Shown one piece after another: positions 7,638 to 55,963 of a stretch of DNA of 64,000 nucleotides. Below the pieces are notes generated by a model. It was given only the letters and a program-made list of their open reading frames with translations. It searched no databases and was not told the origin of the DNA. This DNA is from a virus. Made by a program: the position numbers and the translations under genes. Position 1 is the stretch's first letter. Every line of letters starts with the position of its first letter. The DNA lies in IMG/VR virus record IMGVR_UViG_3300031949_000002. One strand, written 5' to 3'.

Positions 7638-8822
7638 GTGAAGCTCCGCTACCGCTTCCGCTTCTACCCCACCGAGGAGCAGGAGCGCGTCCTCGCCCGC
7701 GTCTTCGGCGCGTGCCGCTACGTCTACAACTGGGGCCTCCGCCTCCGGTCCGACGCGTACAAGAACGAGAAGCTCTCGTTTACTTACGTGGATTCCAGCG
7801 CCGCGCTGACCGCGCTCAAGAAGACGCCGGAGCATGCCTGGCTCAACGAGGTCTCCAGCGTACCGACTCAGCAAGCGCTCCGACACCTCCAGACCGCCTT
7901 CGTCGCCTTCTTCGAGAAGCGCTCCAAGTACCCTGCTTTCAAGCGCAAGGCGGGCGAGCAGAGCGCGGAGTATACACGCTCCGCCTTCTCCTGGCACGCC
8001 TCGGATCGGTCGCTCGCACTCTCCGGCGTCGGCAGGCTCAAGATCCGTTGGTCCAGGATCTTCCGATCCGAGCCCACCACCGTTACGGTCAAGAGGGATA
8101 CCGCAGGTAGGTACTTCGCGACGCTCTGCCTGGACGAAGAGATCGAGAAGCTTCCGGCCATCCATCGCCCGGTCGGAATCGACCTGGGCATCACGGCTCT
8201 GGCGACCCTCTCGACCGGCGAGAAGATCGAGAATCCGCGGCACATCAAGCGCCTGGAGCGTCGGCTCACCCGCGCGCAGCGCGACCTCTCGCGGAAAAAG
8301 AAAGGCTCTCACCGGAGAGAGTTCCAGCGACTCCGGCTCGCGCGCATCTACGCGAAGCTCTCCGACGCGCGGATGGACTACCTGCACAAGATCACGACGG
8401 ACATCGTCCGGCGCTTCGACGTCGTCTCCATCGAAGACCTGAACGTTCGCGGCATGGCTAAGAACCACAGCCTTGCCCGCGCGATCAGCGACGCAGCGCT
8501 CGGACGGTTTCGCCGGATGATCGAGTATAAGTGCGCCTGGTACGGGCCGGAACTGAGGCTTGTAGACCGGTTCTACCCGTCGAGCAAGCGCTGCTTCGAC
8601 TGCGGCTACGTCCTGGAGACGCTGGACCGAGGATGCCGCGAGTGGATCTGTCCCCAGTGTGGAAAGAAGCACGACCGCGACGAGAACGCTGCAAAGAACA
8701 TTCTGGCGGCCGGACAGGCCGTGACTGCGCGTGGAGGGACGGTAAGACCGATCCGTCGTGGACGGAGCGGCGCATCCCTGCGAAGCGCGAACCAGCCTGA
8801 GAGTACGCATAAAGCCTCTTAG
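7638..8822 (+). CDS. tnpB: TnpB RNA-guided endonuclease (394 aa)
   Basis: KLRYRFRFYPT HTH; VGIDLG, IEDLNV, DRDENAAKNI RuvC motifs; CFDC/CPQC Zn finger. Confidence 0.95.
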   Translation: MKLRYRFRFYPTEEQERVLARVFGACRYVYNWGLRLRSDAYKNEKLSFTYVDSSAALTALKKTPEHAWLNEVSSVPTQQALRHLQTAFVAFFEKRSKYPAFKRKAGEQSAEYTRSAFSWHASDRSLALSGVGRLKIRWSRIFRSEPTTVTVKRDTAGRYFATLCLDEEIEKLPAIHRPVGIDLGITALATLSTGEKIENPRHIKRLERRLTRAQRDLSRKKKGSHRREFQRLRLARIYAKLSDARMDYLHKITTDIVRRFDVVSIEDLNVRGMAKNHSLARAISDAALGRFRRMIEYKCAWYGPELRLVDRFYPSSKRCFDCGYVLETLDRGCREWICPQCGKKHDRDENAAKNILAAGQAVTARGGTVRPIRRGRSGASLRSANQPESTHKAS

Positions 8823-49968: not shown

Positions 49969-50218
49969 AGGCCGAGGGAAAAGGTCTACGGATCCGGCTC
50001 GAAATCCTCATGGGGAAGGTCCGGCACTCCGGGTTCAGAAAGCCGCGTCGTCGGCTCTCCGCTCCTGCGCTGCGATCGTAGAGTTCCTGCGTGTTCTCGT
50101 GGGCGGCGGGGATGTTCGTCCTCTTCGACGTAGGTCGGAACGTCGTCTCGCATCTCTGTCCAGCACTCGACATGGGAGCGTTCCCACTCCATGTTCGGCG
50201 CTGCCTTCAATAAAGAGG

Positions 50219-50565
50219 TGGATCCGGGGAGAATCGAACTCCCGTCCAGACGACCGTCATTACGGCGCTTCTACGTGCGTAGTCGGTGTTTTGATCTCGG
50301 GCCGCCGCCGGGCGCCAACACCCTGCGAAGGTCCGTACTCCGGCTAGGTTCTCGGCAGAGGTCTCCCGGATTCTTTCCCCTGCCCAGCAGATGCATTTAC
50401 GTCTTGCCGATCTATCTGCGTCGGCCGGTTCGACGGGCACGGCTAAGCCGCAGCCAGGAGCTTATGCTCAGCAGTTGTCTTTTCATCGCCTTTTAACGTG
50501 TCCAGGCGATGAACCACGGCACGCCACAACCGCACTTCGGTCGCTGTCGAAACCATTTCGGACCC
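50219..50565 (-). ncRNA. ssrA: tmRNA, tag (A)AEHKLLAAA at 50443-50472
   Basis: 5' GGGTCCG..GGTTTCGAC, 3' T arm GTTCGATTCTCCC..CGGATCCA, G3:U70, tag ORF ending AAA-stop. Confidence 0.9.
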
Positions 50566-50655: not shown

Positions 50656-51003
50656 CTATCCGTTTCCGGGCTCGACTTCGATCACAAGTTCGTGGCCGTT
50701 CACGCACGAAGCCCGGCCGCCACGCTTGAAAAACGGGTCCGTCACGTTGACCCACTTCGGACAGGACGGACAGGACGCGTAGACCTTACCGGCCGAGTTC
50801 GACATGAAGAGGATCCCGGTCATGCCGAGTTGCCAGCGGTAGTCGGAACGAATCGTCCCCTTGCCTCGACAGACCGGGCACTTTCCCTCCCCGTCCGTGG
50901 CGCGCGACCAGAACGCAGCGCTGATCCCGGGCGGTCCATGGTGGTGGACCTTCCCTTCGCCTTCGCAGTACGCGCAGGTCACCCGATCTCCGCTCTCTAC
51001 CAT
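50656..51003 (-). CDS. DnaJ-type Zn-finger protein
   Basis: CAYCEGEG, CPVCRGKG, CPSC..CVNGH. Confidence 0.65.
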   Translation of the reverse strand: MVESGDRVTCAYCEGEGKVHHHGPPGISAAFWSRATDGEGKCPVCRGKGTIRSDYRWQLGMTGILFMSNSAGKVYASCPSCPKWVNVTDPFFKRGGRASCVNGHELVIEVEPGNG

Positions 51004-51254
51004 GAATACCCCGCGATGTGCCGATCCCCGCTCCCCTTCGGGACCTTCTTCGACCGATAGACCATGCCCGACAGAGGCAACCACGCCATCGAGCCGTCGT
51101 ACGCGCGCCCCCAGTGCTCGCATCGCGCGATCATGACCATCACGTCCTTCGGTTCGTTCTCGATCAGGATCTCGGGTCCGTTGTCGATCCGGATCTGGAA
51201 AATGCCAAGCTTCAGGAGCGAACCGATCGAGATCTGCTTGCAACGGGGATTCAT
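50997..51254 (-). CDS. Hypothetical protein
   Basis: Downstream of TTGACA-16-TATCAT (51263-51290). Confidence 0.5.
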   Translation of the reverse strand: MNPRCKQISIGSLLKLGIFQIRIDNGPEILIENEPKDVMVMIARCEHWGRAYDGSMAWLPLSGMVYRSKKVPKGSGDRHIAGYSW

Positions 51255-51583: not shown

Positions 51584-51907
51584 CTACCGCACGAGTTTCA
51601 TCTCGGCAGGTGCAGGCTTCCACCAGCCTCCCGCCCGGATCCGGACGATCGCGACGTGCTCGTAGTACGCGCTGTCTCCCTCGCGCTTTCCCACCCCGGG
51701 AGGGCAAGGTACGGGAACAGAACTATCGATCGCGATCACGACCGGATCCCGGCCTTCGTACCGCATATCCTCCGCGTACTCGAACGCTAGATCCGCATCG
51801 TCGAAAAGGTAGACCGCAAGTCCGCAAGGTCCGGGGGACGGACGGAGCCCTTCTTTTCGAATCGCGGCCCAGGTCTCCCGGTCCGTGACGTGGAAGTACC
51901 GGCTCAC
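51584..51907 (-). CDS. ADP-ribosyltransferase-fold (Tpt1/DarT-like) protein
   Basis: YFHVT..I..EGL.P..VYL..A..YA. Confidence 0.5.
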   Translation of the reverse strand: MSRYFHVTDRETWAAIRKEGLRPSPGPCGLAVYLFDDADLAFEYAEDMRYEGRDPVVIAIDSSVPVPCPPGVGKREGDSAYYEHVAIVRIRAGGWWKPAPAEMKLVR

Positions 51908-51910
51908 CCG

Positions 51911-52510
51911 TTACCACTCATCGAAGCCGCAGATGCCCGGCGCGTCGCCGATGATCACGATGTCGTCCGCGGCCCCTTCAGGACGAACGATCGAGGACCC
52001 CTCGTCGGACCGGAGCATCTTGTCTCGCAGTGGTCTTTTGTCCACGGGGAAGCCGTACTTCCGGTCGAGGACATCCCATTGACCGCCCGCCTCTCCGCCG
52101 CCCGGTCCCGCGCTGTGCGGGTTCAGGATCGCGAGCCTGCACATGTCCCACAGCACCTCGGCGAACTCGTCCAACGTGACGGCCGGAGTCCACCCGAGGC
52201 TGAACGTTCCGAGGCAGACCGTGCCGCCGAAGATGTTCGGGTGAACGATCGGCGTGATCCACTTCACGTCGGGCCGCTGGAGCGGGTACTGCGCGCCTAG
52301 ACTTACCAGCGCTTCGTGCGTCTTTCCGATCTTCGCCCCGCCCCCGTCCCGGTCCGGCACGAGTCCATTTCCGTGGAAGAACATCCTGTAGAGGTCGGGA
52401 GGATCTCCCTCCGCATCGAAATCGAGAATGGTCGATTCGCCCCGGAGCTTCTCCATGCGCTTGAGGTCGGCTTTCAGCCTGCGCGAACGAGGTGAGTCGA
52501 ACGACATCAC
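51911..52510 (-). CDS. Ubiquitin-conjugating E2 (UBC-fold) protein
   Basis: RRLKAD, YPLQRP.V.W.TPIVHPNI..GTVCL..W.P..L; catalytic Cys present. Confidence 0.85.
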   Translation of the reverse strand: MMSFDSPRSRRLKADLKRMEKLRGESTILDFDAEGDPPDLYRMFFHGNGLVPDRDGGGAKIGKTHEALVSLGAQYPLQRPDVKWITPIVHPNIFGGTVCLGTFSLGWTPAVTLDEFAEVLWDMCRLAILNPHSAGPGGGEAGGQWDVLDRKYGFPVDKRPLRDKMLRSDEGSSIVRPEGAADDIVIIGDAPGICGFDEW

Positions 52511-52636
52511 TCCAGTCTACCAGCCGCGCCGGACCGCCGGAAGAAAATCGAGCCTTTGGTCCCCTCCACTATAGTCTGGGAGCCGGAAAGCAGGGATTTG
52601 TAAGAAGAAAATGATGGATACGGAATCGCATCTAGC

Positions 52637-52678
52637 TGAGTCAAAAGATGTTGACTCATCATGAGACTGGGTTACAAT
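52637..52678 (+). promoter_or_regulatory. Divergent promoter with inverted repeat over the -35
   Basis: TGAGTCAA-aagatg-TTGACTCA; TTGACT-16-TACAAT on plus strand. Confidence 0.65.
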
Positions 52679-53473: not shown

Positions 53474-53875
53474 GTGGAAGCGGTAAAGACGAAGCTCTGC
53501 CCACGATGCGGCGAAGAGCAACTGATCGAGAACTTCGATCGGAACAAGGCTCGACCGGACGGAAGACAGGTCTACTGCAAGGGCTGCCGCAACGGGACGA
53601 AGAAGCCTGTCGAGCGGCCGAAGAACGGCACTGTCTCGCAGGTCCACGTACCGACCTGGGACCAGGAAGGGGTGACCGAGGCGGTCCTCCTCCGACACCG
53701 AAAGAAGTTCATCGCGATCATCGAGTCCGCTACTTTCGCCTTGGAGCGAATCGAATCGAAGCTGAGCGTACGCACGCGGAAGAAAACGAGCCGACGCTTC
53801 GTGGCGGACCGCGAAGAAGCGCCCGATGCGATCGACTGGCTGGAGGACGATGAGTTCGGCTGCGAAGCGATCTGA
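53474..53875 (+). CDS. Zn-finger protein (endonuclease-VII-like N-terminal finger)
   Basis: CPRC..F..DG...YCKGC. Confidence 0.6.
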   Translation: MEAVKTKLCPRCGEEQLIENFDRNKARPDGRQVYCKGCRNGTKKPVERPKNGTVSQVHVPTWDQEGVTEAVLLRHRKKFIAIIESATFALERIESKLSVRTRKKTSRRFVADREEAPDAIDWLEDDEFGCEAI

Positions 53876-54654: not shown

Positions 54655-55963
54655 CGGCGCGGCGGTCCTAGCTCTCGATGTAGATTGAGGTTATGACTAA
54701 ACGGATGTCCGAGGTCCAGAGAAGAGTCACGTACCGGCTCTACCCAACGCCGCGGCAGGCCGTGGCACTGGAGGAGCGACGCGCTCTCCACTGCGAACTC
54801 TACAATGCCGCGATCGAGGAGAGGCGTGAAGCGTGGCGAAGGCAGGGCCGCTCCATCTCGTACTACGACCAGCAGAACCAGCTTCCGGAGATCAAGGAGG
54901 TCCGTCCAGACCTGGAGCCGCTCGGTTCCCACGCGCTCCAGGCGACGTGCCGGAGAGTGGACCATGCCTACAAGGCGTTCTTCAAGCGCTCCAGAGAAGG
55001 GAAGACTCCAGGGTACCCTCGCTTCAAGAGTCGAAGACGGTTCAAGGGCTGGACGTGGCCCGATCCGACTGGGTGGAAACTGGTCGCTCCGGAGAAGCGC
55101 AGGAGACATCGACCGAGAGGCGCGGTCTTGCGGGTCTCCGATCTGGGCGACATCAAGATCCGAGGCCGGGCGCGGAACGAAGGCGAGCCTGTGACCTGCA
55201 CGATCACGCGGCGAGGCGGAGGCTGGTACGCCTCTATCGTGATCGACTGCGAGCCGGTGCGGAGGCACGGCACTGAGAAGGTTGGGTTCGACTGGGGGCT
55301 GGACTCGTTCCTTATGTTCGACGACGGATCGAAGCTGGAGAATCCACGGTTCATCGGGAAGGAAGAGGTCCGGAAGCTCCGGGGTCTCTCGAAGGACCTA
55401 TCGCGCAAGCGGCTCGGATCGAAGAACTGGAGGAAGTCAGCACGCAGGATCGCCCGGTTTCACGACCGGATCGAACGGCGGCGGGAGGATTTTCAGCACA
55501 AGGAGAGTGCGCGGATCGTGGATCGATCCGCGCTCATCGCGACGGAAGGGTTAGATACGAAGGAGTTGATCGAGAAGGAAGATCAGCCGCGCGCCCGCAG
55601 GCGCGCGATTCTGGACGGGGCACCGGCAAGTTTTCTTCAGAAGGTCCGGTACAAAGCGGAAGAGGCTAGTACCGGATACAAGGAAGTCCCAACGGTGCGC
55701 GTCAAGCCGAGCCAACGTTGCCCCGGATGTTTCCGGCTCTGCGGCAAGAAGAGGCTGGATGAGCGGGAGCATCACTGTCCTTTCTGTGGCTGGAGAGGAC
55801 CGAGGGACCAGGCTTCAGCGAAAGTTTGCCTCCAGTGGGCGGAGGGCAGGCGTCTACCGGGCCGGGGACCGGCCTCGACTGTGGAGGGGTGGGCTCGTAA
55901 AGACCCCCTTGGAAGCAGGAAACCGAACGCTAGGCGCGCGAGCGCCAGCGGGCGGTAGTTCAT
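54655..55963 (+). mobile_element. IS200/IS605-family tnpB-only element (left boundary uncertain)
   Basis: Right end GCGGTAGTTCA(T) after hairpin GCTAGGCGC-GCGA-GCGCCAGC; TTAG possible target. Confidence 0.55.
54693..55958 (+). CDS. tnpB: TnpB RNA-guided endonuclease (second copy, divergent)
   Basis: TYRLYPT; VGFDWGL, ATEGL, CPGC/CPFC, RDQASA. Confidence 0.9.
   Translation: MTKRMSEVQRRVTYRLYPTPRQAVALEERRALHCELYNAAIEERREAWRRQGRSISYYDQQNQLPEIKEVRPDLEPLGSHALQATCRRVDHAYKAFFKRSREGKTPGYPRFKSRRRFKGWTWPDPTGWKLVAPEKRRRHRPRGAVLRVSDLGDIKIRGRARNEGEPVTCTITRRGGGWYASIVIDCEPVRRHGTEKVGFDWGLDSFLMFDDGSKLENPRFIGKEEVRKLRGLSKDLSRKRLGSKNWRKSARRIARFHDRIERRREDFQHKESARIVDRSALIATEGLDTKELIEKEDQPRARRRAILDGAPASFLQKVRYKAEEASTGYKEVPTVRVKPSQRCPGCFRLCGKKRLDEREHHCPFCGWRGPRDQASAKVCLQWAEGRRLPGRGPASTVEGWARKDPLGSRKPNARRASASGR

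Follow-up and report, generated by a model that had tools for sequence, protein, structure and literature searches.

A gene for a ubiquitin-conjugating enzyme (E2) in a bacteriophage raises the question of which modifier such an enzyme would conjugate, and which activating enzyme (E1) would charge it. The gene lies in a 64-kb stretch of DNA, the whole of which was analysed and is here called the window. The window is part of a giant soil phage of about 341 kb, the E2 protein being recorded on a contig of 341,371 bp. The readable share of this phage genome is 64 of about 341 kb (about 19%), and each relative is represented by no more than 20 kb. One soil metagenome contains the window stretch and may be where it came from, and no RNA runs containing it were listed in the sequencing-run search. 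The window has 37 tRNA genes and one tmRNA, an 825-aa protein that matches PHROG head proteins, an RRXRR-HNH endonuclease, a Ser/Thr kinase with TPR repeats and a giant glycosyltransferase. The E2 gene and its features are located as follows.

51911–52510, minus strand: UBC-fold E2 of 199 aa, first gene of a leftward transcription unit (Pfam, AF2, Foldseek, homologues).
52235–52243, minus strand: His90-Pro91-Asn92, the E2 active-site motif (sequence and 42 homologues).
52214–52216, minus strand: Cys99, the predicted thioester-forming catalytic Cys, in the context GTVCLG (sequence and 42 homologues).
52019–52051, minus strand: tail motif FPVDKRPLRDK, residues 154–164, in place of the last helix of classical E2s (alignment, AF2).
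51944–51967, minus strand: acidic-hydrophobic stretch DDIVIIGD, residues 182–189, in the disordered C-terminal tail (alignment).
52511–52647, no strand: divergent intergenic region between the leftward E2 unit and a rightward small zinc-ribbon unit (ORF layout).

The protein is predicted to be a canonical UBC-fold E2 with the appearance of catalytic competence. A preliminary description had recognised a lone viral E2 here from its UBC fold, HPNI motif and catalytic Cys, and each of these features was recovered. The sequence matches Pfam PF00179 (UQ_con) at 33.6 bits over profile positions 46–108, where the gathering cut-off is 27, and its homologues score 27–47 bits against the same profile. 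No Pfam family other than UQ_con was found for it. The structures of Ubc13, Rad6 and UbcH5 are matched by sequence with E values of about 1e-6. Polyubiquitin, which stood at the top of this structure-sequence match list, was rejected because its score is the sum of nine repeat matches of 2.8 bits each, an artefact with no homology behind it. The AF2 model, based on an alignment of 42 homologues, has a pLDDT of 82.9, with a confident core at residues 1–155 and a disordered tail at residues 166–199. The best 50 Foldseek matches of this model are all canonical E2s, with a probability of 1.00 and TM-scores by target of 0.6–0.7.

The active-site string of the E2 is HPNIFGGTVCLG...WTP, with H90-P91-N92 and C99 within HPNIFGGTVCLG. 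The Cys has the spacing expected of an E2, 7–8 residues downstream of the HPN. H90, N92, C99 and W107 are invariant across the 42 homologues, which are 40–63% identical, and P91 is retained in at least 90%. In the tail motif FPVDKRPLRDK, which has a pLDDT of about 95 and is shared with E2s of planctomycete operons, P155, D157, R159 and L161 are invariant. The conserved tail of the family as a whole reads FPVD.RPLRDK...GSSI.RP...DDIVIIDD..G.C. The DDIVIIGD stretch is conserved as dDivi.dD in the phage E2s and weakly in the planctomycete E2s, with a pLDDT below 50; by eye only, it may be SIM-like. After the tail, the longer homologues P0002–P0005 and P0013 have variable, mutually unrelated C-terminal domains of about 100 aa, and that of P0003 had no match among PDB sequences and no Pfam family.

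The database gene call for the E2 begins at M19. Homologues align from the extreme N-terminus, and the start is therefore GTG at 52510 or ATG at 52507, not an internal Met. GGAG is found immediately upstream of this start. No sigma-70-like promoter for the E2 gene was found, the single sigma-70-like site near the intergenic region being on the plus strand at 52651–52678.

The window and all the fetched loci were translated in six frames and searched with profiles of the host-type ubiquitin-like modifier (Ubl), E1, JAB peptidase and RING E3. There were no matches in the 64 kb of the window, with 52 kb and 11 kb around the E2, so the earlier statement that E1, Ubl and JAB genes are absent from the window stands. 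Likewise, the precomputed Pfam tables, which cover about −1.1 to 21.9 kb and 41.9 to 62.5 kb, contain no ubiquitin-pathway family. None of the four profiles matched in the phage-type loci L001/L002, L003–L005, L006/L007, L090–L094, L141/L144 or L142, each of 20 kb or less. At least seven distinct phage-type contigs have the orphan gene, several of them as a tandem pair in which each copy carries the HPN and Cys. The closest relative, L006, is syntenic with the upstream side of the window, where both have the giant glycosyltransferase and the small zinc-ribbon genes. Its E2 bears a 90-aa extension, and its downstream genes differ from those of the window.

A phylogeny with bacterial E2s had been proposed as a check, and it places the phage E2s together. 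In a FastTree phylogeny of 222 E2s, the orphans with adequate flanks and 37 metagenomic homologues form one clade of 54 rows (SH-like 99). The same orphan clade is found with IQ-TREE under the LG+C20 site mixture (33 of 84 rows, SH-aLRT 99). The cellular kin of this clade are planctomycete operon E2s. Capture of the phage E2 from a planctomycete host would be the economical reading of these trees, which are unrooted and therefore do not prove the direction of transfer. No orphan-type E2 was found in the cellular genomes searched, the best matches in 301 Planctomycetota genomes all being operon-type. Nor were relatives found in IMG/VR viral contigs, by single-protein and profile scans, or in 50,697 GenBank phage records, by tblastn. 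Conservation of the HPN and catalytic Cys throughout the phage clade points to a catalytically active enzyme, as predicted from the sequences. An active site that is unchanged across a deep, diversified clade at 40–63% identity, with duplications, shows long-term purifying selection there.

To collect the cellular relatives, an E2 profile was run against prokaryote genomes, one for each species; this gave more than 530 matches, of which 80 loci were kept. All 80 are from the Planctomycetota (Pirellulaceae, Isosphaeraceae and Planctomycetaceae), complete chromosomes included. Their E2s are about 36–45% identical to the phage E2 (38–45% for the nearest ones), which scores 175 bits against a profile of 65 of the planctomycete operon E2s. 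A Ubl gene is directly upstream of the E2 in 79 of the 80 loci, as judged by neighbour clustering, Pfam and profiles. An E1 (ThiF) and a JAB/Rpn11-like peptidase are present in nearly all loci with enough flank and a Prok-RING_1 E3 in about half, all within about 4 kb of the E2. The subfamily that scores best with the phage E2 profile has the alternative gene order E1-Ubl-E2-JAB. The Ubl is YukD-like (Pfam PF08817), of about 95 aa, and ends in ..VYPE[IV]VAG. It is conserved in the manner of ubiquitin, at 67–95% identity across families, which means that a single E2 could serve many hosts. The host Ubl at L033:9620-9925 and in 17 other planctomycete loci usually stops exactly at ..IVYPEIVAG and sometimes continues for 2–7 residues. 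A search of the protein database with the host Ubl returned 1804 clusters.

The passage of PMC4197634 that cites Burroughs, Iyer and Aravind (2011) describes a 'eukaryote-like' operon of five genes (Ub-like, E1, E2, RING E3 and Rpn11-like JAB), first noted in Caldiarchaeum subterraneum and also reported in Planctomycetes, Acidobacteria and Actinobacteria. The planctomycete operon is of this Caldiarchaeum type. Judged solely by the E2 phylogeny, Planctomycetota is likely to be the host phylum of the phage. Operon E2 matches were found in 33 of 301 evenly sampled Planctomycetota genomes (about 11%), and the phage's own host may therefore be without the operon. By the same count the operon is widespread in the phylum, but short of the near-universal presence that had been expected.

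A total of 56 phage-clade and 162 operon E2s were compared for conservation. Both groups keep SPR.RRL..D in helix 1, HPNI, VCLG, W.P, LWDM and the FP.D.RPLRD tail, and Cys99 is kept in phage and host E2s alike. The N-terminal helix of classical E2s faces the E1, and the HPN Asn is needed for isopeptide formation, not for charging. The enzyme has lost its genomic partners but kept the helix that faces the E1, the Cys for the thioester and the Asn, a combination best explained by use of the E1 and Ubl of the host. Since a cognate host Ubl cascade exists, its use is the most economical reading; with no partner genes near it, the phage E2 probably plugs into the host Ubl machinery. The chance is about even that the phage E2 is active, takes the host Ubl from the host E1 and thereby diverts conjugation.

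After infection, the phage E2 would use its conserved N-terminal helix to dock on the host E1, and the host Ubl, with its ..VYPEIVAG C-terminus, would be loaded on Cys99 as a thioester. The E2 would then hand the Ubl to lysines of targets favourable to the phage, which may be host or phage proteins, so that the host conjugation flux would be diverted. The variable C-terminal domains of the longer homologues may be target adaptors. We infer the charging by host E1, the use of host Ubl, the identity of the targets and the benefit to the phage. A complex prediction for the phage E2 with the host Ubl gave a score of 0.02, which is under the mark required for a verdict. The preliminary description had suggested a decoy or hijacking E2. 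Use of a host cascade is favoured by the finding that E2s of Ubl-E2-E1-JAB operons are the nearest cellular homologues, and the conserved active site argues against a passive decoy. The cascades it had named, Bil, CBASS and Bub, are not those indicated here. The PADLOC and NCBIfam models had no matches to the phage E2 at E ≤0.01, nor to the host E2 or host Ubl, a negative that is weaker for Bub as PADLOC 2.0 (2023) may be without Bub models, and the nearest system is the 'eukaryote-like' operon.

A rather unlikely alternative to this use of the host cascade is that the phage E2 is a sink or competitive inhibitor, which would bind the E1~Ubl of the host, drain or block it, and so shut down an antiviral host Ubl pathway. 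Draining could be by stable charging or self-conjugation, for example, with the pathway antiviral as in the Bil systems. The lack of partner genes nearby and the conserved helix facing the E1 speak for this as much as for the preferred reading, and pressure on dosage or from an arms race could account for the tandem E2 duplications in several phages. In Bil, conjugation of a Ubl is proven to act against phages (bioRxiv 10.1101/2023.09.04.556158), and the host operon is patchy in its phylum (33 of 301 genomes), as defence systems often are. However, the HPN Asn is invariant although it would be dispensable for a mere trap. No defence-system model is matched by the E2, Ubl or RING of the host operon, the Ubl is conserved far more strongly than is typical of defence proteins, and in some families the operon is accompanied by stable neighbours such as an M48 peptidase and an MMPL transporter.

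It is unlikely, somewhat more so than the sink, that the phage has a complete pathway of its own, whose E1 and Ubl, and possibly a DUB or E3 as well, lie in other parts of the genome or are too diverged to be recognised. About 80% of the 341,371-bp contig is outside the readable part, and pathway genes are often scattered in giant phages. In addition, the distant orphan E2s, often as two copies, are within a conserved gene module in six contigs, at the following positions.

L001:4700-12600: conserved E2 module.
L003:5400-10700: conserved E2 module.
L093:800-5000: conserved E2 module.
L141:100-7800: conserved E2 module.
L142:7400-14200: conserved E2 module.
L144:6900-15650: conserved E2 module.

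The module contains a PolX-thumb protein (PF14791) and families of about 300, 289 and 340 aa, the latter three without any database match, and might supply novel partners for these E2s. The presence of the E2 beside these three families and the PolX-thumb protein is compatible with a pathway encoded by the phage. The protein of about 340 aa was considered as a hidden E1 and rejected: it gives no sign of ThiF, and Pfam, PDB sequences and the Atlas contain nothing that matches it. Among the neighbours, the small conserved proteins are basic, rich in Lys and Arg, and by eye not beta-grasp-like. The module families are absent from the visible parts of the window and of L006, its closest relative. 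Cellular partners are always within a few kb of the E2, yet host-type Ubl, E1, JAB and RING are absent from the 64 kb of the window and from about seven other phage-type loci.

That the phage protein is a non-conjugating E2 fold, acting as a structural or regulatory binder or being a recently captured passenger gene without a role, is improbable: UBC-fold proteins without conjugating activity do exist, as the UEV proteins, and no partner or substrate of the phage E2 has been identified, but the catalytic Cys and HPN are kept across a deep, diversified clade (40–63% identity) that has duplications, and the gene is retained in at least seven phage-type contigs. A still more remote idea is that an E3-independent orphan E2 reads Trp tags, EKRW(G) in the window and [DG]PR[ED]WSPR in the relatives, and attaches host Ubl to the tagged phage proteins. 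It would be a bacterial-virus analogue of Ubc9 recognising the SUMO consensus motif.

The preferred reading, in which the host E1 and Ubl are used, can be set against systems already described. The planctomycete 'eukaryote-like' operon E2s have the UQ_con type, the HPN and Cys, the N-terminal helix and the FP.D.RPLRD tail in common with the phage E2. Unlike these, the phage copies are orphans in a clade of their own without nearby Ubl, E1, JAB or RING, and are sometimes tandem-duplicated or extended by variable C-terminal domains. Eukaryotic viruses tap the host ubiquitin system, partly through E2s of their own. The African swine fever virus UBCv1 (I215L) and the E2s of giant Nucleocytoviricota are lone canonical E2s that use host E1 and ubiquitin. 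The logic of tapping host conjugation would be the same. In the present case the host would be a bacterium, the virus is a giant phage of the tailed-phage type, and the modifier would be a YukD-like Ubl that ends in VAG rather than ubiquitin. Viral E2s that draw on a ubiquitin-type pathway of the host are known already; what would be new is such an enzyme in a bacteriophage.

To our knowledge, what has so far been known of Ubl conjugation in bacteria is its use by the host for defence (Bil, CBASS, Bub). The bacterial antiviral Ubl systems are Bil (BilABCD), Bub (6E/DUF6527) and type II CBASS with Cap2/Cap3 (PMC11601603; bioRxiv 10.1101/2023.09.04.556158). These resemble the present case in having E1/E2/Ubl/peptidase chemistry in bacteria and a setting of phage-host conflict. 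They differ in being host-encoded defence operons with E2s of other families, not phage genes. Full-text searches found no description of a phage-encoded UBC-type E2, and a wide-ranging comparison of jumbo phages refers to ubiquitin for eukaryotic viruses only. For Borg elements, deSAMPylases have been proposed as a counter to SAMPylation by the host, a parallel in which the modifier is removed. If the proposed use of the host E1 and Ubl is true, the contest between virus and host over a ubiquitin-type pathway extends to bacteria, between giant phages and the Planctomycetota operon. The targets of the phage E2 should reveal what the operon pathway controls, and so provide a handle on its function.

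The second gene of the leftward unit encodes a small protein, here called mini-ART.

51584–51907, minus strand: mini ADP-ribosyltransferase-fold protein of 107 aa with an H6-Y33-E83 triad (coding pattern, relatives, AF2, structure matches).

This gene begins 3 nt past the E2 stop codon. It was missed by one gene caller, and its GC content at the three codon positions (0.70/0.50/0.72) is coding-like. The two genes are probably co-transcribed in this phage. That an ADP-ribosyltransferase (ART)-fold gene is beside the E2, as the preliminary description had it, is confirmed by the AF2 model (pLDDT 90.2) and its structure matches. With VIA-align, the ART lobe of KptA/Tpt1 is matched with a Z of 8.8 (rmsd 2.4, 81 aligned, 27% identity), followed by TreX (8.3), PltA (8.0) and pertussis S1 (7.7). 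Rhs ART toxins, DarT, PARPs and Arr were also matched, nearly all of the listed rows being of the ART superfamily. ART proteins likewise head the Foldseek list, weakly (E 0.008–0.05). There are weak profile matches to Tpt1, and the language-model look-alikes are also ART-like. No family reached the Pfam threshold for mini-ART, the best being DUF7002 with an E value of 0.23.

A full HMMER scan found 20 relatives of mini-ART, which either stand alone at about 107–110 aa or are modules of larger proteins. Their alignment has the motifs Y[YF]HVT, G.CG.GVYL[WF]D and EGD..YY[ED]HV, which correspond to the H-Y-E triad and fit strands E2-9, E31-35 and E85-89 of the AF2 model. Among the 16 aligned sequences, at least 90% have H6, all have Y33, and all have either E or D at position 83. 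One relative, P0049, passes Pfam PARP with 27.7 bits against a threshold of 26.7. An ART module of about 100 aa is found at the C-terminus of proteins of 258–462 aa (P0045, P0046, P0049 and P0053), in some as two copies.

Mini-ART shares the ART split beta-sheet fold with KptA/Tpt1 and the minimal ART toxins (TreX/TreTu, Arr, DUF952). It differs from KptA/Tpt1 in being only about 100 aa, without the N-terminal RNA-binding lobe and the part of the catalytic residues that this lobe holds, and members of its family are either stand-alone proteins of phage contigs or modules within larger proteins. As it aligns only to chain residues 93–180, the C-terminal lobe, it is not a Tpt1, and with the N-terminal lobe absent a full Tpt1 catalytic set is impossible.

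The pairing of E2 and ART held only in part, since the neighbour is real and its position beside an E2 is conserved in no relative. An ART profile gave no matches in all other E2 loci, phage and host. The closest ART relative, P0044, is on a phage-like contig of 4.4 kb without an E2, and the 2.9-kb contig of P0047 has no Pfam-annotated gene. By these comparisons the adjacency is peculiar to this phage, and a relationship seen in no relative shows no functional link. Mini-ART as a partner of the E2, modifying the Ubl in the manner of SidE or CteC, was not adopted because there is no ART homologue near other E2s. It may instead be a separate phage effector, co-transcribed with the E2 in this phage only.

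Short Trp-centred peptide motifs are strongly enriched in the window, L001, L003 and L093, and have no occurrences in L006, L141 or L142. Translated in six frames, the window contains 12 copies of EKRW, a density of 11 per 100k aa against 0.1 in the 80 planctomycete loci. For [DG]PR[ED]WSPR the counts are 9 in 20 kb of L001 and 6 in 9.7 kb of L093; the proteins that carry it are unrelated, and many are encoded beside the E2.

Small Cys-rich zinc-ribbon proteins are encoded on both sides of the E2 unit, at 50656–51243 (minus strand) and 53474–53875 (plus strand), and have weak, sub-threshold matches to DnaJ CXXCXGXG and Lar restriction-alleviation models. Homologues of the rightward zinc-ribbon genes are syntenic in L006, where a protein with TROVE/Ro60 and vWA domains is encoded 0.8 kb downstream of the E2 (L006:11706-13457). 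The tmRNA gene is at 50217–50565, about 1 kb downstream of the E2-ART pair. Two TnpB genes (OrfB_IS605 / Cas12f-like TNB) are present in the window, at 54693–55958 on the plus strand and 7545–8810 on the minus strand, one of them 2.2 kb from the E2.
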